A stretch of DNA of 64,000 bases from a virus. The translations under genes were made by a program, and so were the position numbers. This document shows positions 4,939 to 22,442 of this stretch, in pieces. Numbering within the stretch: the stretch's first letter is position 1; each line of letters starts with the position of its first letter. The notes under the pieces are model-generated. The model ran no database searches, was not told the DNA's origin, and saw nothing but the letters and a program-made list of their open reading frames with translations. The stretch spans positions 1-64,000 of IMG/VR virus record IMGVR_UViG_3300046459_000436. One strand, written 5' to 3'.

Positions 4939-7900
4939 TCAGCGCTTGTACGGCACGTAGGTGCCCGAGTTCCGCATGCCGAGGCGCAGCATCGACTGCT
5001 CCACGACGTCCCGGAGATTGCGTTCGGTCATGACGTGGCCCTCGACCTGGATCGTCAGATGGTTGTGGACGACCGTCCCCCCGGCGCCTCGACCGCCACC
5101 CGCTAGTGCGAGCCCAGGGTTTCCTGGGGTACCTGCGGCCGTGACGGCGCCGGCAAGGTTCGACGCGGCCGTGGTGGCGTGGTGGGCGGCGCCCTCAATG
5201 CCCTTGGCGAGGCCTTGGGGAATGAACACGCCGAGGTCGGCGAAGACCTGCGACGGGCTCCTGATCCCCAACGCCTTCTTGATCGCTCTTTGCATGGCCT
5301 TGGCGATCCGCATCATCTGCCGCTCGATCGCCTTCTCCTGCGACTGCAGTCCCTTGACCAGGCCCTGCGCAGATTTGATGCCAGCCCCGTACATCGAGTC
5401 CGCCACCGACTTGCCAGCCGCGTTCGCCGCGCTCTTCGTGGCCGTCTGCAACTGATTGATCTGCTTGATCTGTGACTTCGACGCACCCGACAGGGCGGCG
5501 GCGGTCGCCCCGCCCTGGTCCACGCCGGCGCCAGCTATCTGCTCGATCAGGTCCGCGCGCAGGCCCTTCTTCTTCAAGGCCTGCAACTGGGCTGCGAACT
5601 GGGTGGCCTTGGCCATCTGGTCGCGCATCTTGTTGACCACGTCCTGCGCGGTCAACGCGAACCCCTCCTGGGGGGCGTCCGTGACGACGGAGAAGCCCTG
5701 CATGATCCCCGAGGCGACCGACTTGGCTTCGTCGGACCATGCCTTCTTCAGGTCGGCGAGCTTCTTCTGTGCAGCCTTCAGCCGGGTGGCCACGTCATCG
5801 CGCTTGTGCGCGAGGCCCATCAGCTCCTTCGACTCCCGGGCGACGTACCGCTGCAAACCCCTGTGGTGGCTTCCGAAGTCGACGTATAGATCCTTGGCCA
5901 GTCGGGTCGTTGCGGACTTCACCCGGGCCGTGGATCCGGTCAGGCCGTCTACGAGACCGTGGACCACCCACCCGCCGAGTTCCTTGAACTTTTTCGACGG
6001 CGACGCGATACCGAGGAACTTCTTCGCCGAGTTCAGCGCACCCTCGGCCAGTCCCTTCATCGCGCTGACCAGAGATGACCCGCCGTTTCGGACGCCCTGG
6101 ATGATGCCGTCGATGATCGCCTTGCCGATCTGCAGGAACCGGGATCCGATGCCCTTGACGGCACTCCATGCGGCGTTGAGGCCGCTGGTGATCGACCTCT
6201 TGATGTTGCCGACCGCGGTGGTGATGCTGCGCCACGCGGCGAGGAGGGGGGTGACCATCGCCGTTTTGATGGCGTTCCACGCGCTGCTCGCGATCGACTT
6301 GATTGCCATCCAGTTGGCGTGGAGAAAGCCGGCGACGGTCTGCCACACCGACTGGAGTCGGTGCCAGATCGCCATGACGGGGTTGATGATGGCGATCTGG
6401 ATGCCACGCCACACAGCGCCGGCGACGGCCTTGATTCCGTTCCATGTGGCATGGAGAAGCGCTTTGATTCCGTTCCAGGCGGCCTTCGCGACGTTGGTGA
6501 TCTGGGTGTGGAAGTGGTTCCAGGTCGCGACCAGGATGCCGATCGGCAGCGCAAAGATCAGCAGGAGGAGCGGCCACCACTTCCGGAAGAACCCGGTGAT
6601 GCCATTCCATACGGTGGCGGTGGTGCGCCCCACCCAGTGCCAGGCGCCCACGATGGGGTCGGCGACCATGTGCCACGCGGACGAGAAGAAACTCGCCACC
6701 GAGCGCCAGGCGCCGACCACCCAGTTGGTGATCGAATGCCAGATGCTGGCGGTGCCGTCGGCGACCCAATGCCACGCGGCGACGACTGCGTGGGCGACTG
6801 CCAGCCCGATGGTCTTGATGAAGCCCCAGACCTGCCGCCAGTGCATGGCCAGCATCACGAGTCCCGCGATGAGCAGGGCGATACCGATGACGATCTCGGG
6901 GATGCCGGTTGCCCACAGCGCTGCGGCCATGTTCCACAGGGAGACCGTGAAGGCATAGACCGCGGCCACCAGGAGTGTCCCGATGACCGCCGCCAAGGCC
7001 GCCGCGACGTCCTTGTGCTTCTCGAAGAACGTGACGGTCGCGAGAATCACCGGGATCAGCTTCAGGCCGAGGGCGATCGCCACAGTGACGATGGCTTCCT
7101 TGAGTCGGCTCATCTGCACGTTGAAGCTGGCCTGGGTGGTCTTCCAGCCTTCGACGTCCTTGGAGGCGTGGTTGAGCGATGTGGCGACCTTGTCGACGCG
7201 GTCCTTGAAGCCGTCGGTGTTCTCGCCGGTCAACTGAAGGGTGGTGTTCAGGCCGATGGCGCCGCCGGTCATCTTCTTGATGGCCTCGGTGTACGTCTGG
7301 GCCGCCGGGCCGCCACGCTTCAACTCGGCTGAGAATCCGTTGGTCTTGTTCTGGAGCGTCGCATACTGCGTCAAAAGGTTGGCCTGCTCGGGCGGGAGGG
7401 TCTTCAGCTCCTTGCGCCAGTCCCCCAGGGAGATGGAGCCCTTCGAGTAGGACTGGGCCAGCTTCTGCAGGTTCGCCGGCATGCTCTTGACCATCGCGTC
7501 CGCGTCCTGGGCGGCTTGCTTGGTCTTGTTGAACGCCGACAGCAGCAGGGTCCCGCTGGGCCCCATCTTGCCGAGGACGGTCTGGCTGAGCAGGTCCAGG
7601 GTGCCGGTAAGACCCCGCTTCCCGATCTTGGTTGCCACATCCGTGCTGGACAGACCGAGGCGCTGCATCTCCTGCACGGCAACACCATTGGGCGCGGCGA
7701 GAGAGCGGATGGTGGAGGCGAGTTCCTGCGTGGCCTCGCGGGCACTGGTGCCGTGCTGGGACAGCGTGGCGATGGCGCCACCGACCTCGGCGAACGAGAC
7801 CTTGTTGGCAGACGCGATGGGGATGACCGTGGACAGTGCGCCCGCGAACTCCTGCATCGTCATCTTGCCCTCGCCGGCCGCGGTCTTCAACGCGTTCATG

Positions 7901-8397
7901 ACCCGCACGCTGTCGGTGGCCTTGAGGTGGTAGGAGGCCATCACCGATGTCATGGCGTTGGTGACGTCCTTGAGGTCGGCGCCCTCCTCGCGGGCACCTT
8001 GTGCTGCGGCGCGCAATACTTTCAGGCCGTCCCCGGCGCGGTATCCGGCCTTCTCGACCTGATACATGCCCTCGGAGAGCACATCGGTGGAGGTGCCGGT
8101 CTCCCGGGCCATGGACAGGACGCCATTGGAGACCATCTTGAGGTTCTTCGTGGACTCGCCGCAGGCGGTAACCAGCAGGTTCATCTTCTGCTGAAAGTCG
8201 CCCGCCGCCTTGACCCCGTAGGCGAGGAATGCGGCGCCGACCAGGACGGTGGCCCCGCCGAGCTTGGTCATGGCGGCGCGAGCCCCGCCCATACTGGCGG
8301 TGAACGACTCGCCCTCCGTGGTGGCCCGGCGCATTCCCATCGTGAACGGCGCGGTCTCGGCTCGGAGCCGCACGAACAGGTCGGCGACGTCAGCCAT
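4939..8397 (-). CDS. Tail tape measure protein
   Basis: 1152 aa, Ala-rich helical, ~11-residue Trp periodicity, LGIASPSK and LGIRSPSQ motifs. Confidence 0.95.
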   Translation of the reverse strand: MADVADLFVRLRAETAPFTMGMRRATTEGESFTASMGGARAAMTKLGGATVLVGAAFLAYGVKAAGDFQQKMNLLVTACGESTKNLKMVSNGVLSMARETGTSTDVLSEGMYQVEKAGYRAGDGLKVLRAAAQGAREEGADLKDVTNAMTSVMASYHLKATDSVRVMNALKTAAGEGKMTMQEFAGALSTVIPIASANKVSFAEVGGAIATLSQHGTSAREATQELASTIRSLAAPNGVAVQEMQRLGLSSTDVATKIGKRGLTGTLDLLSQTVLGKMGPSGTLLLSAFNKTKQAAQDADAMVKSMPANLQKLAQSYSKGSISLGDWRKELKTLPPEQANLLTQYATLQNKTNGFSAELKRGGPAAQTYTEAIKKMTGGAIGLNTTLQLTGENTDGFKDRVDKVATSLNHASKDVEGWKTTQASFNVQMSRLKEAIVTVAIALGLKLIPVILATVTFFEKHKDVAAALAAVIGTLLVAAVYAFTVSLWNMAAALWATGIPEIVIGIALLIAGLVMLAMHWRQVWGFIKTIGLAVAHAVVAAWHWVADGTASIWHSITNWVVGAWRSVASFFSSAWHMVADPIVGAWHWVGRTTATVWNGITGFFRKWWPLLLLIFALPIGILVATWNHFHTQITNVAKAAWNGIKALLHATWNGIKAVAGAVWRGIQIAIINPVMAIWHRLQSVWQTVAGFLHANWMAIKSIASSAWNAIKTAMVTPLLAAWRSITTAVGNIKRSITSGLNAAWSAVKGIGSRFLQIGKAIIDGIIQGVRNGGSSLVSAMKGLAEGALNSAKKFLGIASPSKKFKELGGWVVHGLVDGLTGSTARVKSATTRLAKDLYVDFGSHHRGLQRYVARESKELMGLAHKRDDVATRLKAAQKKLADLKKAWSDEAKSVASGIMQGFSVVTDAPQEGFALTAQDVVNKMRDQMAKATQFAAQLQALKKKGLRADLIEQIAGAGVDQGGATAAALSGASKSQIKQINQLQTATKSAANAAGKSVADSMYGAGIKSAQGLVKGLQSQEKAIERQMMRIAKAMQRAIKKALGIRSPSQVFADLGVFIPQGLAKGIEGAAHHATTAASNLAGAVTAAGTPGNPGLALAGGGRGAGGTVVHNHLTIQVEGHVMTERNLRDVVEQSMLRLGMRNSGTYVPYKR

Positions 8398-8463: not shown

Positions 8464-8922
8464 TTACCTCGCGCGCCAGCCGGGGCGGAATACCCGCTGG
8501 TACAGGGCCGGTGCGACGTGGGTGATGCCGAAGCGGTAGGCGGGCCCCAGGAATGGGTACGTCGCCCCGTTGCGGAGGCCCTCTTTCTCCAGGATCAGGC
8601 CGTAGCGGTTGGCCGGCGTGCGGCCGTAGGGCGGCGTGAACCCGACCGCGGTGCCGACCTTGGTCTCCCAGCCGCCGCCGACGAAGATGACCGGCGAGTG
8701 GGTGATGGCGCGGCGCAGCGTCCCGGAGATGACGGCCGGACCGGTGCCGGGCCGTGCTGGCGTCGGGGTGCCGCGTCGGTGCGCGCCGACGGAGGCGTTG
8801 ACCTTGGCCTGGCGTTCGATGGCGTTGGCCAGTTGGGTCAGGAAGGTCTTGGACTTGAGCTGGCCTTCGCGTTCGACCTCGGTGAAGATGCGCGTGAACT
8901 CGCCCGGCCGGAGTTCCGGCAC
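8464..8922 (-). CDS. HK97 gp10-like tail completion protein
   Basis: PAVISGTLRRAI, YGLILE..G, YPFLGPA motifs. Confidence 0.75.
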   Translation of the reverse strand: MPELRPGEFTRIFTEVEREGQLKSKTFLTQLANAIERQAKVNASVGAHRRGTPTPARPGTGPAVISGTLRRAITHSPVIFVGGGWETKVGTAVGFTPPYGRTPANRYGLILEKEGLRNGATYPFLGPAYRFGITHVAPALYQRVFRPGWRAR

Positions 8923-8926
8923 ATCC

Positions 8927-9199
8927 TCACCCCGCCCCCTGGCGCCTGGCCTTGCGTTCGGCGCGTTCGGCTTCGCGTTCCTCGTGGGTGCCGATCATGC
9001 CGAGGAAGTCGAGGGCGTAGCGGCGCACGTAGGCGGGGGTCTGCTGGAGTTCGTCCCACGACCAGTGCATGCGGCGCATGAGGATGAAGTCGGCCCACTC
9101 GGCGGGCGAACCGGTGCCGCCCCAGGTGCCCTCGATGATGGCTTCGACGGGCAGGAGGACGTCTTCGTAGTAGGGGCTGCCGGGCCCTACTGAGGGTCC
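8927..9199 (-). CDS. Tail assembly chaperone C-terminal extension (gpT-like), -1 frame
   Basis: Open -1 frame overlapping the chaperone end: GPSVGPGSPYYEDVLLPVEAIIEGTW...ADFILMRRMHWSWDELQQTPAYVRR...; no good start of its own. Confidence 0.7.
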   Translation of the reverse strand, partial: GPSVGPGSPYYEDVLLPVEAIIEGTWGGTGSPAEWADFILMRRMHWSWDELQQTPAYVRRYALDFLGMIGTHEEREAERAERKARRQGAG

Positions 9200-9591
9200 A
9201 CGACGCGCTCAAGCTCCGCCATGATGCGCTTGATGATGACCATGGGGAGGCGGCCGATGTTCTCGATGGTGATGGCGCCCAGGCGCGGCTGTTGGCCGAC
9301 GCCGAGGGACTCGAAGAGCGCGACAGGGTCGGCATCCTCGGCAACGTCCGGCGTGTCGCCGCCGCTGAATGCCTCGTAGACCTTCCAGGCGACGATGATG
9401 CGCGCGAACACCGCATACATGGCCTCGTTGGCGCCCTGCGGATCGACCGGCTGCCCCTTGTCGTCGAGGGGCACATCCTCCGGGGTGATCTCCTTGGGTG
9501 GCAGGAGCTGCGGGTTCTTCATGAGGATCGAGCAGTCGTCGCCCAGTTCGGGGAACTGGAGCAGGACATACGGCTGGCTGTAGCCCGACAT
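9187..9591 (-). CDS. Tail assembly chaperone (gpG-like)
   Basis: 134 aa acidic protein between major tail and TMP, AAGGAG RBS, ends VVDPQ*. Confidence 0.8.
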   Translation of the reverse strand: MSGYSQPYVLLQFPELGDDCSILMKNPQLLPPKEITPEDVPLDDKGQPVDPQGANEAMYAVFARIIVAWKVYEAFSGGDTPDVAEDADPVALFESLGVGQQPRLGAITIENIGRLPMVIIKRIMAELERVVDPQ

Positions 9592-9685
9592 GGATGGTTC
9601 TCCTTGCGGTGCGAGGGCGTTGAGGGCGTGAACCCTGGCCGTGCCGCGACGCCCTCACGCACGACACAGCCAGGGAGTAGGGCGG

Positions 9686-16501: not shown

Positions 16502-17494
16502 TCAGGTGAACCAGTTGGCGAAGTGAGCCAGCGAGACGTCAGCCGCAGGTACGCAGCGGCAAACGGGGTGGCTTGGCATTAGGGGGAAGTCGGTGATCGG
16601 CCACGGGCTGCCCGCCTCGTTGTCGATGCACGTAGGACAGACGCGGCCATCTCCCGCAGTGAGCCACGAGACGCTCTGCACGCCTTCGGATTGGTACAGC
16701 GACAGGGCGCCTTGGTCGGCGGCGGTGGTCATGGCCCAGTCGACAATGAACGCGACTGATTCCACGTCCGTGCCGGTGAGGACGTTCATCGCGTCCTCAA
16801 TCATCTGGTCGCGGCTGGCACCGTCCTCGGCCCCTTGCGCGAGTATCCGACCGAGGTCTGCCGCGGCCCGGTCGATAGTGCGGCCGAGCCAGCCGCCCGT
16901 GTCCGCCCAGATCTCGTCGAGGCGTTCCAGGGACTGGTAGGCGTCGCCGAAGGCGATGTTCCAGTCGAGGCCGATCCGGTTGGCGCGTTCGGCGGCGATG
17001 GCGACCGCGTTGACCATGCCCTCCGCCCGGCCGGCTGCGATGGCATTCCTCAGCGCGGTGCGCAGGGCATCCCATCCGGCGCCGGCTGCGTCGGCGATTG
17101 CGTGCAGCATGGCTTTGGCGGCTTCGAGTGCTTCAGTGCGGATGCTGGGCTTGCCGTGGTCGGCTTCGGTGAGTCCGGCCTGCTGCCGGAACCGGTCAAC
17201 CACGGCGGCGACCGCGTCCCGGCCGATGAGGTCGCGCCACGCATCGGCCACGAATGGTACGTGCTTGGCCTGCTGCTCCTCGCGGCGTTGGAACAGTAGC
17301 GCCCACATGCCTTCGAGCTTGCCGAGGTCGATGGTGACTTCGAGGATGCGCGGGTCGTCAGCGTGCTCGATGGCGAGCGCCACGGCTGCGGTGGAAGCGC
17401 GCCGCACGCGGTTCGTCATCGGCCCCCCGGAGACGGCCCAGCCTGCAGCGAACGCCTCGCGGGCGAAGCCCTCAATGGGGTGCGGCATGGGCAC
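16502..17494 (-). CDS. MuF-like head morphogenesis protein
   Basis: C-terminal WLTAGDGRVCPTC...HPVCRC motif. Confidence 0.9.
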   Translation of the reverse strand: MPMPHPIEGFAREAFAAGWAVSGGPMTNRVRRASTAAVALAIEHADDPRILEVTIDLGKLEGMWALLFQRREEQQAKHVPFVADAWRDLIGRDAVAAVVDRFRQQAGLTEADHGKPSIRTEALEAAKAMLHAIADAAGAGWDALRTALRNAIAAGRAEGMVNAVAIAAERANRIGLDWNIAFGDAYQSLERLDEIWADTGGWLGRTIDRAAADLGRILAQGAEDGASRDQMIEDAMNVLTGTDVESVAFIVDWAMTTAADQGALSLYQSEGVQSVSWLTAGDGRVCPTCIDNEAGSPWPITDFPLMPSHPVCRCVPAADVSLAHFANWFT

Positions 17495-17540: not shown

Positions 17541-18338
17541 TCATGGCTTCTGAGGCGAAGCCTGCCTCCGGGCTCGCGCCCGCTCCCGCAGGCAGGTTCG
17601 GCACTTGCGGCTGGGAGTCTTGCCATTACCGCTTCGCTCGATCACGGTATTTGCCTCGTCATAGGGGTGACCCTGAGGGCAGTGTGTCTTCCGCCCTGGC
17701 CGCCCCTGTGCGCGCCACTCTGCCCACCACTTTCGTTTCGCCTCTGCGACCTTCGCCCGCGAGGACGCGTTGGTCATCGGCTGAAGTGCGCGCGCCTTGG
17801 CTGCTTTGCTCAGCTTGCCCCGGGTCTCGTCCGAGGTGATGCTTCCCGCCGCTCGCCAGTCTGCCCAGCGTTTCGTCGTGGCCTCCGAGACCGCCTTCCG
17901 TGTGTTCGCTGGAATCGTCTTGCCCTTGTGCACGCGACTGACGGCCTGGCGCCGGACGGGGTCTTTCATCCGTTCGAGGGCGGCCTGCCGAATCCGCTCT
18001 CGGGTTTCGGGGGATGCGATGCGCCCCAGGGTTCCAGGGCCGCCATCAGTCGCGTTGGTCAGGCGAGCGCCCTGAGCTCTGTACGTGGTGATCCATCGCC
18101 GCTCGGCTTCTCCGTGGCTCTCGATCGGAACGATCTCAATCTCCGTCATGACTGGCGAGACACCGACTTTGAGCAATGAGCGGATCCACCGGCTCTTGTA
18201 GTCCTGGCGCCCAGTATCGGAGATGTGCCCTCGAAGCCGCTCGGCGAGCGAGCGTGTTGTGACCCCGACGTAGCGAACTTCACCGTTACGAGGGTCACTC
18301 AACGTGTAGATCCAGGCCATCCGCTCATGCACGTCCAT
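17541..18338 (-). CDS. GIY-YIG endonuclease with NUMOD3-like repeats and C-terminal Zn finger
   Basis: WIYTL...RYVGVT..R..GH, E..WI, LTN..DGG; SPETRERI/SDETRGKLS repeats; THCPQGH..CRTC; start uncertain (18338 or 18320). Confidence 0.85.
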   Translation of the reverse strand: MDVHERMAWIYTLSDPRNGEVRYVGVTTRSLAERLRGHISDTGRQDYKSRWIRSLLKVGVSPVMTEIEIVPIESHGEAERRWITTYRAQGARLTNATDGGPGTLGRIASPETRERIRQAALERMKDPVRRQAVSRVHKGKTIPANTRKAVSEATTKRWADWRAAGSITSDETRGKLSKAAKARALQPMTNASSRAKVAEAKRKWWAEWRAQGRPGRKTHCPQGHPYDEANTVIERSGNGKTPSRKCRTCLRERARARRQASPQKP

Positions 18339-18375
18339 GTACATCAATGTACATGAGTGGCTCTCTCTGTACTCT
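18337..18375. promoter_or_regulatory. Tandem ATGTACAT palindromes (Phd/YefM-type operator) plus divergent -10 elements
   Basis: ATGTACAT at 18337-18344 and 18347-18354; TACTCT 18370-18375 lies 6 nt before the phd ATG. Confidence 0.65.
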
Positions 18376-18381
18376 GGCGTT

Positions 18382-18576
18382 ATGAAGGAAGAACCAGTCG
18401 AGATGAGTACCGCTGAAGTTCGCACGAACCTTGCGGACGTGGTCAACGCGGCAGTCCGAAACCGGATCACTTTCGTGACCAGTCGCGGGCGCCGCGTGGC
18501 GGCGGTTGTCCCGCTATCCATCGCCGAGGAGGCAGTGGAACGCGAAGACGGGGGCCCTAGCCGACCCGCTTCTTGA
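18382..18576 (+). CDS. Orphan Phd/YefM-family antitoxin-like DNA-binding protein
   Basis: STAEVRTNLADVVNAA..RITFVTSRGRRVAAVVP is the Phd/YefM signature. Confidence 0.85.
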   Translation: MKEEPVEMSTAEVRTNLADVVNAAVRNRITFVTSRGRRVAAVVPLSIAEEAVEREDGGPSRPAS

Positions 18577-18652
18577 TGAGCGGCAGCACATCCTTGGCGC
18601 GCAGCGGATGGTTCGGAGGATCGGGCGGCAGCGGTTCAGGCGGCACGCTCAT
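18557..18652 (-). CDS. 31-aa peptide overlapping the portal end
   Basis: MSVPPEPLPPDPPNHPLRAKDVLPLIKKRVG with AGGAGG RBS. Confidence 0.5.
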   Translation of the reverse strand: MSVPPEPLPPDPPNHPLRAKDVLPLIKKRVG

Positions 18653-20201
18653 CGACACCTCCTGGCAGCGTGGCCAGCGCCTCCCGCAGCCGAGCCCTGT
18701 ACCGGGCATGCAGCGCCTCGACGGGCGGCTCCTTCTCCGGCTCAGCTGGCTCCTCGGATTGCCCTGGGGGCGCCTTGCCCGCGAACGCGGCGAGCTGGGG
18801 CGGCACGGGGGCGGGCTCGGGCTTCTCCACCGCGATCGGCTCGCCGTGCTCTGGCGCAGCTGGCTCCAGAGCGGTGCCGCGGAGTCTGTTGGCGATGAAC
18901 GCCTTGGATGCGGCATCCATGTCGGCCCACTTCACCAGGTTGGTGCGGTCGATCAGGACCGGCTGGTCGCCGCCGTCGACAGGGGGTTCGCCGATGTCGG
19001 CTCGGGCCCGGTTGAGGGTCCATTCACCGTTGCGGATCCGCATGTCACGGATGTCCTCAACGGTCTTGGAGTCACGCATGTCGACATCACGGAACTTGAG
19101 CTTCCAGCCTTCGACGCCGAAGCCGTTCTTCGCGAGGTGGAAGTTCAGGGCCTCCAGCACCAGTTCGGCCAACGGCTGGCATGTGTTGACCATGAACGTG
19201 CGGTCCTGCGCCTCGCCGGTGCCGCCGCCGAGGTTCCCGGACTCGATGATGCCGACCTTGGATGGCGGAACCCCGTAGGCGGCGATGATCTCGTCGCGCT
19301 TCTGGTTGAGGAACTGCAGGTAGTCCATGGTGCGGGACTGCGACAGTTCGTTGACGCCGGCGCCGCCCTTGGTGTTGATCGGGTTGCCGATGTTGCGCGG
19401 GCCGATGTTGCGCTGCTGGTACTGGGCGTTCCACCGGTTGATGTCCGACGGGGAGGCGCCCGCCGGGTGGTCCACATGGAGGACCGGGGGGCAGCCCTTC
19501 CGGAAGATCTCCTTCGAGGTTGCTGCCGAGAACAGCCAGGACACGATCGGCAGCATCGCCGCCTGCGTCGGGCTGACACCGAACACCCCGGACCGCGGCG
19601 AATCCAGCGAAATGTGGATGACGTCGCGCGGCTCGAACGTCGCCCGCTGGCCGAGTTCGGTGACCTGCACGTAGCTGGTGATCGTGCCATGTTCGTCGGC
19701 GATCGGCAGCATGCTCGGGCAGTCCAGCGAGTACAGGGCGACCGGCTGCTGGCCGAGCCAGACGACCTCGATGAACGCGTCACCGAACACGAGCAGGTCG
19801 GTGATGACGCCGCGGAGGATCTGCCGGACATTCTCCCGCGGGTTGCAGTAGGCCAGCATCCGCTCCAGCAGGAGCACCTGCTGTGGCTTGTCCGGCTGCT
19901 CCTCGTCGCCCTCACCGTTGTCGTTGTCCCAGTCGGTGACGAGGCCGCCCGCAGTGATGGTGCGCGCGATGGCGTTCACGGATGCCCACGACCAGGGACA
20001 GGCGAGGTACGCCTCGTAGAGCTGGTTCAGCATCGATCGGCGGTCGGACTGGGTGGCTGCGCCGATGCCCTGATTGGACTCGGTCAGGCCACCCGGGCTG
20101 ATGCCGTACTCGAAGCCCGAACGCTCCGGGAGCTTCGCCGGGGCCGTCTCCAGCACCTCGGTCTCCGACCGCAGACTGTTCCACCAGGTGCGCAGACTCA
20201 C
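18636..20201 (-). CDS. Portal protein
   Basis: LLVFGDAFIE, VIHI..GVSP, IIAAYGVPP, TLNRAR motifs; follows TerL. Confidence 0.95.
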   Translation of the reverse strand: MSLRTWWNSLRSETEVLETAPAKLPERSGFEYGISPGGLTESNQGIGAATQSDRRSMLNQLYEAYLACPWSWASVNAIARTITAGGLVTDWDNDNGEGDEEQPDKPQQVLLLERMLAYCNPRENVRQILRGVITDLLVFGDAFIEVVWLGQQPVALYSLDCPSMLPIADEHGTITSYVQVTELGQRATFEPRDVIHISLDSPRSGVFGVSPTQAAMLPIVSWLFSAATSKEIFRKGCPPVLHVDHPAGASPSDINRWNAQYQQRNIGPRNIGNPINTKGGAGVNELSQSRTMDYLQFLNQKRDEIIAAYGVPPSKVGIIESGNLGGGTGEAQDRTFMVNTCQPLAELVLEALNFHLAKNGFGVEGWKLKFRDVDMRDSKTVEDIRDMRIRNGEWTLNRARADIGEPPVDGGDQPVLIDRTNLVKWADMDAASKAFIANRLRGTALEPAAPEHGEPIAVEKPEPAPVPPQLAAFAGKAPPGQSEEPAEPEKEPPVEALHARYRARLREALATLPGGVDERAA

Positions 20202-21711
20202 GGGACGTTCACCGTCCCCCCAGCGCGCGGCGCCTCATCGTCATCGAACCACCAGGCGTCGTCGCTCGGCGCAGACTCGGACGGGCGCACGGCCATCGTC
20301 GGCCCGAGCGGCTTCAGAACCTCCGTGGTGGCGACCGGGGCTGCGTCGTCGAGGATGACGAACTCTGGGCCGGAGCCAAGGTTGGACAGGAGGTACCTGA
20401 CCGCGTCGGCCAAGTGGTCATCTGCGGTGGTGTCGGCGTCTTCCGGGTCACCCTTGGTGGCGTGCGGCAGATCCGACAGTTCCCGGTAGAGATCGGGGCA
20501 CGTCGTGAAGATGTGCATTTTCGGGCAGGTGTCCCAGCCCTGCGCCCGGTGATGCGGGCAGGCCGGCGCCTCGGCAAGGTAGGAACGCACCCGCTGCCAG
20601 CCGATGACGCGGGAGCCCGCTCCCTTGCCGGCCTGGGCCAGGTGCACTCCGTTGTCGGCGTACACCGCGGCAATGGGCTTCGCATCGCCGCGGGTGGCCC
20701 ACATCGCGTCATCGGCGTACCGCACGGCGATGTGTTCGCCGTGCGCTTCGGCCGCGAGGATGCTCTGGGCCTGCTCCGCTTCGCCGACTCCGCGCCGGTA
20801 GATCTCGCGGTAGACCCAGACGCGACCGTCTTCGTCGACGGCAGCCCATAGGACTGCCCAGGGGGCTGCGAAGCCCCAGTCGATGCCGTTGTATCGCTTC
20901 CACGTCGCGGGCAGTGCGATCGGCTCGATGACGTGCCGGTCGCGCTTGAGTTGGAACATCTGGCCTTGGAACACGTCCCAGTCCCCGTCCAGGAATGCGG
21001 CCCGCAACTTTTCGGGCAGCGCCTTGAGGTCGGCGGCGTATTCAGGGTTGACGTGGGGGTTGTCGGACAGCTTCGACGGGATGAAGCGCACCGTGCGCCC
21101 GCGCTCATCGACGATGACCTTGCTGCCGTAGCCAGTGGGCTTGATGTAGCGGGTCTTCACCGCGCCGTGGCCCGGGCCGCCCGGGTTGGTGCCGGAGCGG
21201 ATGCCGAGAACGGGGATGTCGCGGCGTCCGGACCGCAGCCGGGATTCGAGGAAGCTGCACACGTCGGGTGGGGTGAGGGTCCGCTCGTCGAAGATAAGCA
21301 GCTGGTACTGGCCGCCCTGCCTGCGGGTGGCGTCCTGGACGGTCTCGGCGTACCGAAACATGATCAGGCTGCCGTTGGGGAACCGGAGCTCGTACTCGGT
21401 GCCGTTCCAGCGGGCCCCGAGGTCTTTGGCGAAGTTGAGGTTCACCAGTTCGGCGATCAGTGACTCTTTGAGTTCGCCGTAGGTGCGGCGGAAAGCCCCG
21501 ACGCGCAGCCCCGGGTAGCGGACGCATTCCCGGATGGCGTGCGCTGTCAGGGCCCGGCTTTTCCCCCGCCCGCAGCGCCGCCGAACAGGACGTCGAACTC
21601 TTCTGCACTGTGGAAGGTCAGCTGCTTCGGGGTGGGGGTGTAGCCGAGGGCGCCGAAGACGTCCTGTGGGGGTGCTTCCAGCATCTGGGCGGCGAGGATG
21701 AGGGCGTCCAC
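20198..21711 (-). CDS. terL: Terminase large subunit, split by a -1 frame change at 21559-21565
   Basis: 0-frame from GTG 21711 gives ...PKQ..FH..FDVLFGGAAGGGK then stops; -1 frame continues SRALT...LIFDE, GTNPGG, GIDWG, DDHLADAVRY. Confidence 0.9.
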
Positions 21712-21728
21712 GACTCACCCCTTCCTGA

Positions 21729-22442
21729 TCAGACGGCGCGGAGGTGGCGGGCGGCGACTTGCTTGGCCGCGGCAGCAGATTCGCCGGTCACGCCAGCCGC
21801 GATGAGTGCCGCGTCGATGGCCCGCAACACGGTCTCGGCCTGCTTCTCGGTGATTGCCGCAAGCCTCTCGTCGATGTTGAGGCGGGCGATGTTGGCGAGC
21901 AGCGTTCCGGCCTGGTTGACGGCCCTTTCGTACAGGGCGACTTCGGCGCGGAGTTGCTCGCCGGCGCCGCCCTTGTAGCGGATCTCTTCGAGTTCGTTGA
22001 CCTTGGCGCCGAGCGCGTTCTTGAACGCGAGCACTTCGCCGGCCAGCTCGCTGAGTGCGGTGAGCGGGTTGTCGACGGGGCTGGCGCCGATCTGGACGAG
22101 CAGCTTGTTGGCTTCCTTCATCAGCTTCACCTCCGCGATCCGCTTCCCCGCCGCTTTGAGGGCGTTGGGTGCTTTGCCGCCGTGCGCCTTGCAGACGTCC
22201 TGGCCCCTCATGGCCCAGTCGGTGCAGCGCTGTCCGGCGTTGTGGCCGTTCTTGGTGGTGCCGGTGCAGCGGCGTTCGTCGGGTGCTTTGCCGATGAGGC
22301 CTTGGCCGCTGTGGCGGTGGCAGACGTCGTAGCCGGGGAGCGTCCAGAGTTGGCAGCGTCCGCGGGGGTCGCCGCTGGGGTAGAGGCGGATGGTGACGCA
22401 TTGCCGGTCTGGGGGTGGCTTGCGGGGGCCGGGGTGTGCCAT
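21729..22442 (-). CDS. terS: Probable terminase small subunit with two HGG-type Zn knuckles
   Basis: Directly upstream of terL; C..C..C..H repeats (CHRHSG, CKAHGG) plus coiled coil. Confidence 0.7.
   Translation of the reverse strand: MAHPGPRKPPPDRQCVTIRLYPSGDPRGRCQLWTLPGYDVCHRHSGQGLIGKAPDERRCTGTTKNGHNAGQRCTDWAMRGQDVCKAHGGKAPNALKAAGKRIAEVKLMKEANKLLVQIGASPVDNPLTALSELAGEVLAFKNALGAKVNELEEIRYKGGAGEQLRAEVALYERAVNQAGTLLANIARLNIDERLAAITEKQAETVLRAIDAALIAAGVTGESAAAAKQVAARHLRAV

Follow-up and report, generated by a model that had tools for sequence, protein, structure and literature searches.

How does a phage make its genome packaging enzyme when the gene for that enzyme is out of frame in the middle of its catalytic P-loop? 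The question is raised by the gene for the terminase large subunit (terL) in the 64,000-nucleotide stretch of DNA analysed here (positions 1 to 64,000 of the IMG/VR record IMGVR_UViG_3300046459_000436; hereinafter, the window). The record is a complete genome of a soil Streptomyces-type phage, 80,673 bp in size, with direct terminal repeats and rated 100% complete. As argued below from sequence comparison, the answer is that TerL is most likely made via -1 ribosomal frameshifting, which would be required for the enzyme. Programmed -1 frameshifting in tailed phages is textbook knowledge for the tail chaperones; to our knowledge, there is no description of it for the packaging motor, or for a site within a catalytic loop where only the shifted product works.

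The elements of the locus, in the order of transcription, are as follows:

21718..21726, minus strand: Shine-Dalgarno-like AGGAAGGGG, 6 nt 5' of the terL start, read from the sequence
21559..21711, minus strand: N-part of terL in the 0 frame, from the GTG start to Lys51 (...FGGAAGGGK), by translation
21559..21565, minus strand: slippery heptamer G GGA AAA in X XXY YYZ phase
21547..21549, minus strand: 0-frame stop TGA, 3 codons past the heptamer and within the 5' arm of the hairpin
21488..21558, minus strand: downstream RNA hairpin predicted by fold computation, with an interrupted stem of ~23 bp
20198..21562, minus strand: C-part of terL in the -1 frame (K-S-RALT... to TGA), 454 codons, with the remaining ATPase domain and the nuclease domain
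20198..20201, minus strand: GTGA, in which the stop of terL overlaps the start of the portal gene
18636..20201, minus strand: portal gene, PF04860 (4e-30), starting at 20201 and adjoining terL

The 54-codon frame that opens with GTG 21711 runs through 51 sense codons to ...FDVLFGGAAGGGK, continues with A-G-P and ends, as ...FDVLFGGAAGGGKAGP, at the TGA at 21549-21547 of the minus strand. Because the codons at the break are GGC GGG GGA AAA GCC GGG CCC TGA, the heptamer G GGA AAA at 21565-21559 is in phase. A -1 slip changes the reading to GGG AAA AGC, that is, G-K-S, and gives GGAAGGGK-S-RALTAH; the Walker A motif GxxxxGK[ST] is intact only after this shift (GGAAGGGKS) and is absent from either single frame. 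The open part of the -1 frame extends from 21718 to 20198; its residues 1-52 are Arg/Pro-rich and without homologues, and terminase homology begins at residue 53, the K of GKS. The N-part, in turn, shares 71-81% identity with the N-termini of in-frame relatives, and the junction is collinear with these relatives residue for residue, none gained or lost, the alignment gap being 1 nt only. In the 64-kb window, GGGAAAA occurs once, against 2.2 occurrences expected by chance, so the heptamer by itself is no statistical outlier, and it is the phase and the position that matter. The earlier note on this DNA had described the 54-codon frame with its stop inside Walker A and the in-phase heptamer, both of which were reproduced from the codons, and had proposed that a -1 slip restores GGAAGGGKS and the rest of TerL, a claim that the collinearity with the in-frame relatives bears out. 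A start at GTG 21718 followed by a straight reading of the -1 frame was rejected because the product would carry the 52-residue Arg/Pro-rich, non-homologous lead and would have no GxxxxGK[ST]; this start is also contradicted by the homology of the 0-frame N-part to that of the relatives and by the synonymous character of its changes.

In a tblastn search of the -1-frame protein against annotated phage terminases, every match began at residue 53 (best 1e-58), and the same protein matched phrog_2 'terminase large subunit' at 1.5e-29. Two Pfam families, Terminase_6N and Terminase_6C, scored marginally under the cut-off (PF03237, 19.9 bits, and PF17289, 17.2 bits, both slightly below the gathering scores). 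The complete 80,673-bp genome yielded a single TerL match and no second copy, and a Pfam profile search of this genome found none of the terminases PF03354, PF04466 and PF05876. When the TerL proteins of the window and of a second break-carrying group (the L159 clade, see below) were compared by tblastn with 50,697 phage records, the best cultured relatives were only 36-44% identical, and no plaque-forming phage with the Walker A break was found among these records. The neighbourhood of terL also includes a free-standing HNH/homing endonuclease gene (17541-18521, minus strand; phrog_314, phrog_1492 and phrog_826), which sits between the portal gene and a head-morphogenesis-like gene (16502-17494).

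Approximately 150 members of this TerL family were gathered from IMG/VR, GTDB genomes and JGI metagenomes, with hosts that include Streptomyces, Kitasatospora, Peterkaempfera, Streptacidiphilus, Catenulispora and other actinomycetes. Most of the members have a continuous ORF that reads GGN GGN AAG TCN/ACN, with no slippery run, and the relatives found in a scan of metagenome contigs are almost all in frame. The nearest relatives (L270, with 98% protein identity over 120 residues, and L005-L012, with 82-89%) are in frame, and those with 89-98% identical proteins have neither the heptamer nor a strong hairpin; the break in the window clade is thus recent, derived and lineage-specific rather than ancient. 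Nor is the window clade the sole carrier of the break. In a maximum-likelihood tree of 66 TerL sequences, the break appears in five separate lineages (the window clade, L082, L160, L041 and L126), four of which have in-frame sisters at high support, with L126 standing alone on a long branch, and a sixth lineage (L147/L285) is represented by prophages of two isolate genomes. All six share G GGA AAA followed by G or C. One of them, L082, is a prophage on NZ_JAAFYZ010000010.1 of the isolate Catenulispora pinistramenti NL8, a strain with two related prophages, of which L082 (NODE_10) is broken and has a 15-bp stem, whereas L076 (NODE_47) is in frame. The terminal branches of L041 and L126 are 3-8 times longer than those of their sisters, with relaxed constraint or poor sequence as possible reasons; because of these long branches, the two copies may be decaying, and in some instances the break may be without function. 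Frame breaks at other places in terL were found in L097, L098, L251, L263 and L268, all short, poor contigs or MAGs, with a different position in every case. Another family member, 79% identical and in frame, is encoded on the 97,860-bp plasmid pCMC57_01 of Kitasatospora sp. CMC57 (L070), which suggests a phage-plasmid lifestyle for some members of the family.

A Walker A pattern ending in GGGGGAAAA matches almost exclusively TerL genes, which come from phages of 26-72% GC, and most of the matches are in frame, reading GGA AAA TCN, or AAA AGY / AAA ACN (G5A5). About 60 distinct in-frame TerL genes (pattern matches L101-L218) carry an in-phase G GGA AAA, many of them as G5A5; a single deletion separates these genes from the broken state, and some of their ribosomes would be lost to the -1 frame. 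A break-specific version of the pattern, in which the next base is C or G, retrieved 33 contigs in a full scan of IMG/VR: 22 of these encode a TerL broken in the same way and fall into about 10 lineages of 47-72% GC; 8 are intein-bearing, and 5 are unrelated. Among the break carriers is a distant clade of eight contigs from unrelated phages (L159, L174, L188, L201, L203, L284, L286 and L288; 51-56% GC) that has kept the break although its TerL genes are synonymously saturated (dS 0.9-2, dN/dS 0.08-0.10). In the 1302-nt alignment of this clade, in which 59% of the columns are invariant, the longest invariant run spans 31 nt and lies at the heptamer, GGCGGGGGAAAACGAAGGCGCTCATCATGGA, the second longest being 17 nt. 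An invariant block of this length that persists despite saturation bears the mark of a recoding signal under selection. The 31-nt block of the L159 clade forms no convincing hairpin, and its stimulator may be of another kind.

Substitutions within the window clade were counted separately for the two parts of the gene. Among the break-carrying genomes L002, L003 and L004, all 11 changes in the N-part are synonymous when read in the 0 frame (0 nonsynonymous), and pairs of C-parts differ by 46-78 synonymous versus 6-18 nonsynonymous changes (dN/dS 0.03-0.08, dS 0.15-0.28). For the C-part of the window compared with those of L002-L004, dN/dS is 0.04-0.06 at dS 0.23-0.32, as computed over the 406 codons that precede a C-terminal indel; wrong-frame controls give ratios of 2.5-3.5 for either part. 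The break, the heptamer and the stem persist throughout the clade, in each of its five contigs (the window, L002/L184, L003 and L004), at dS of up to 0.35. Thus, both halves have been under strong selection at the protein level, each in its own frame, throughout the existence of the break, which is unlike the behaviour of a pseudogene, and to judge from these patterns of substitution the break is not decay.

Downstream of the heptamer, the minimum free energy (MFE) fold of 74 nt has -43.3 kcal/mol (z -2.45, with 3 of 200 shuffles as good) and is the strongest computed fold among 31 lineages. It pairs 21555-21540 with 21506-21492, with an additional inner CCGGG/CCCGG stem, and is the hairpin that the earlier note had drawn. 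Folds within the window clade have -43.3 or -38.1 kcal/mol (z -1.5 to -3), in contrast to the in-frame sisters L005-L009 and L270, with -25 to -34 kcal/mol and z above 0 (for L270, -29.7 and +0.39). The earlier note's expectation that relatives would retain the break, the heptamer and the stem accordingly holds within the clade, whose continuous-ORF sisters have no heptamer and weaker folds. The usual spacer between heptamer and stem in bacteria is 5-6 nt. In the window, the hairpin is stronger than those of the sisters, yet the spacer of the main stem is 3 nt, and part of the stem is ancestral. A compensatory change is seen in L004, where a G.U pair became C-G through two synonymous changes, and another pair is swapped from C-G to G-C between the break clade and its in-frame sisters. 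Given that 86% of cells are paired across both the break-carrying and the in-frame groups, the topology of the stem partly predates the break, and the stem was strengthened rather than invented. A comparable gain is found in L082, which has a perfect 15-bp stem (-22.9, z -3.4, 0 of 200 shuffles as good), built partly through amino-acid changes, where its in-frame sisters have only a 7-bp core; in L126 and L041, a hairpin of 7 bp follows after a 5-nt spacer. Fold computation found no strengthened downstream structure in L160, L285 and L041, and in the pooled comparison the break lineages as a whole did not fold significantly more strongly than the in-frame heptamer carriers (Mann-Whitney p = 0.07).

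The junction between the K and the S of Walker A is also a site of inteins. In-frame inserts of 395-473 aa are located between the K and the S/T of the TerL Walker A in L014, L027, L028, L030 and L037, and further inserts at the same place, ending in ...THN directly before the S, are present in L230, L246 and L247. The LAGLIDADG_3 and Hom_end domains in the inserts score above the Pfam cut-offs, and in the TerL tree the inteins were gained at least three times. The inteins carry LAGLIDADG homing-endonuclease domains and, in some, an HTH domain as well. Three of them have the following positions:

L014, 1819-3003: intein in the TerL Walker A
L027, 1585-3003: intein in the TerL Walker A
L030, 1358-2770: intein in the TerL Walker A

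The window terL has no in-frame insert at the break and so is not intein-interrupted.

Several explanations other than ribosomal frameshifting have to be weighed against these observations. The missing base could be an error of sequencing or assembly, the true run being five A's or six G's, as might be thought from the homopolymer context and from the origin of the window in a metagenome assembly. We aligned to positions 20600-22400 the contigs of four public runs, assembled independently and with a different assembler, and compared them at the level of the contig consensus, at which a minority five-A variant is invisible. The contig from the probable source sample (X1; 1357 nt, depth 186) has 0 differences from the window, a 243-nt contig from a second study (X2) spans the break and is identical to the window, and a 959-nt contig from a third study (X3; depth 27) represents a strain with 23 substitutions and 0 gaps; in the contigs from all three studies, the runs at the break are five G's and four A's. 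The Nextera adapter on loose contig ends identifies the libraries as Illumina, for which no consensus homopolymer errors are expected at G5A4. Agreement also comes from the IMG/VR contigs of other samples, L002, L003 and L004 (L184 duplicating L002), all three of which carry GGCGGGGGAAAAGCC. No RNA run containing the stretch was found. At the contig-consensus level, then, the missing base is real DNA and not a sequencing error; the check for a fifth A that the earlier note had put forward returned four, and we regard an error as practically out of the question. A real deletion might still be an inactivating one, with terL a young pseudogene of a defective element (a plasmid-like or satellite prophage) that has lost the ability to package its own DNA. 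This explanation, which we consider improbable, is at odds with the dN/dS of 0.03-0.08 past the break across dS 0.15-0.35, with the 454 codons that show no second lesion in any of the five contigs, with the complete genome and its terminal repeats at a depth of 186, and with the occurrence of the same break in about 10 lineages when breaks elsewhere in terL are confined to short contigs and MAGs. What can be said for it is that losses of one base from homopolymers are the commonest inactivating mutation, that the nearest relatives have continuous ORFs, that the branches of L041 and L126 are long, and that plasmid-like persistence is conceivable, given the terL of a relative on the 97.9-kb Kitasatospora plasmid.

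The frame could alternatively be restored in the transcript, if RNA polymerase added one G or A within G5A4 such that some mRNAs were in frame. Productive transcriptional slippage needs about 7-9 or more identical bases, and the runs here are only 5 and 4 long. Although a pair of homopolymers is present at the break and realignment of this kind restores the frames of some bacterial genes (reviewed in PMC5009743), transcriptional slippage would leave unexplained the in-phase heptamer and the stems gained in two lineages, and we deem it very improbable. A different reason for the retention of the break, with ribosomal slippage still the mechanism, is conceivable in outline, if rather unlikely: the break could be a 'savior' indel, the missing base destroying the target of a LAGLIDADG intein at the K/S junction while slippage still supplies TerL. 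The altered spacing would make the gene uncuttable and the P-loop protein would remain unchanged, with slippage paying the cost. Inteins of the same TerL family occupy the exact K/S junction where the base was lost, eight more intein contigs emerged in the pattern census, and there is conceptual precedent in the 'savior indel' concept of Atkins et al. (PMC5009743), who also link the gap in T4 gene 60 with protection from a homing nuclease. This co-location may, however, simply follow from terL being most conserved, and rich in G and A, at Walker A, and the strengthened stem would be left unexplained.

Because the break is real DNA, is strongly selected and recurs in about ten lineages, a backward slip of the ribosome most likely makes TerL; the shift itself, its efficiency and its reason are what we infer from the layout of the locus, the presence of the deletion in real DNA, its conservation under selection and its recurrence. 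In the mechanism that we propose, ribosomes would initiate at GTG 21711 and read 50 codons to G GGA AAA, where tRNA-Gly would be paired with GGA in the P site, and tRNA-Lys with AAA in the A site. With the stable hairpin 3 nt downstream resisting unwinding, the two tRNAs would move back by one base and pair with GGG AAA. AGC (Ser), the codon read next, would complete the Walker A motif GGAAGGGKS, and 453 further codons would then be read up to the TGA at 20200-20198, which overlaps the portal start. Non-shifting ribosomes would stop three codons on and release a 54-residue peptide with an incomplete P-loop. Bacterial IS elements make use of the sequence G_GG.A_AA.A, which is a member of the V_VV.A_AA.R class, efficient in E. 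coli (PMC4066793), although earlier work in E. coli, as cited in that paper, had rated it inefficient. Full-length TerL, and perhaps the coupled portal protein too, would likely be limited to a set fraction of initiations, much as the transposases of the IS3 family are, and the role of the shift may be either regulation of terminase supply or rescue, by slippage, of a tolerated indel. The earlier note had gone further on this point. Its suggestion that recoding limits TerL relative to TerS finds no support, given that the ORF upstream of terL has as its sole match phrog_3678, a family with no assigned function, and is not identifiable as TerS; the suggested throttling of the portal gene is likewise unsupported beyond the GTGA stop/start overlap.

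Among known cases of recoding, the closest functional analogy would appear to be with the IS3-type transposases, the active enzyme being a rare fusion product. In the orfAB genes of the IS3 and IS1 families, the active transposase arises only as a -1 fusion, at an X XXA AAN heptamer, G_GG.A_AA.A being one of those in use (PMC4066793), with a stem or pseudoknot downstream and with the amount of the catalytic protein limited. The IS product OrfA is a functional regulator, whereas the 54-aa 0-frame fragment has no evident role, and the gene here encodes a phage packaging ATPase rather than a transposase. The tail chaperones G/GT of lambda, as outlined by Levin 1993 and by Xu, Hendrix and Duda 2004, share with the window terL a -1 slip of the G GGA AAR type, the location in a late structural operon of a tailed phage and the conservation of the site by position; in that outline, however, both G and GT are needed in a fixed ratio and the shift is near the end of G, whereas the shift proposed here would be 51 codons into an enzyme, inside the catalytic motif, and with one workable product. 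The break studied here, then, is not a chaperone site of the G/GT type, as it lies in terL and its 0-frame product is 54 aa long. The window additionally contains a candidate tail-chaperone pair (9209-9667 / 8838-9476, minus strand) upstream of a 1152-aa tape-measure-like ORF (4939-8397), the second ORF of the pair being in the -1 frame of the first; the 3' end of the first ORF shows no obvious heptamer and does not contain GGGAAAA. The parallel that the earlier note had drawn with the GGGAAAA site of actinophage tail chaperones thus finds no support in the window, where that sequence occurs only in terL. E. coli dnaX (tau/gamma) likewise combines a heptamer and a 3' hairpin within an ATPase gene; in dnaX, however, the shift ends the protein and produces a second functional subunit, whereas here it would make the only functional protein, and a spaced upstream Shine-Dalgarno-like element, as in dnaX, was not identified in the window terL.

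Two further comparisons involve TerL itself. For the large terminases of Streptomyces phage phiHau3 and prophage StrepC.1, bypassing triggered by UUA has been proposed and suggested to regulate terminase supply (Smith 2013; PMC10732093), so that recoding would serve the sole large terminase in those phages as well; as set out in these sources, they belong to another TerL family, and 7-10-nt non-coding blocks are hopped after a rare UUA, in the +1 direction and with no heptamer given. The P-loop inteins (L014, L027, L028, L030 and L037) share with the break the same K/S junction and a repair that comes after transcription, but they consist of an insert of 395-473 aa that is removed by protein splicing, whereas the window gene is only short of one base. 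A full-text search of the literature returned no account of a frameshift at the Walker A motif of terL. Two reported cases were considered and set aside: the split terL of Gordonia phage Nyceirae (PMC9030533) is divided between the ATPase and nuclease domains and not at Walker A, and the putative terL frameshift in Microbacterium prophage R1 (PMC9030533) is in a different sequence and is speculative.

If confirmed, the frameshift in Walker A would represent a new recurrent recoding site with many independent origins, and would point to a selective force, be it regulation of the amount of terminase or protection against the homing of inteins. There would also be a practical consequence, in that gene callers and phage annotation pipelines would split or discard terL, the main marker gene of phages, at the break. 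The lysogen Catenulispora pinistramenti NL8 is culturable, making the frameshift directly testable, and its prophages L082 and L076 form a natural paired system. Protection from homing, if true, would explain about ten origins of the same break, and the Walker A motif of TerL would then be a battleground, with a single conflict ending variously in an intein, a frameshift or a bypass gap.
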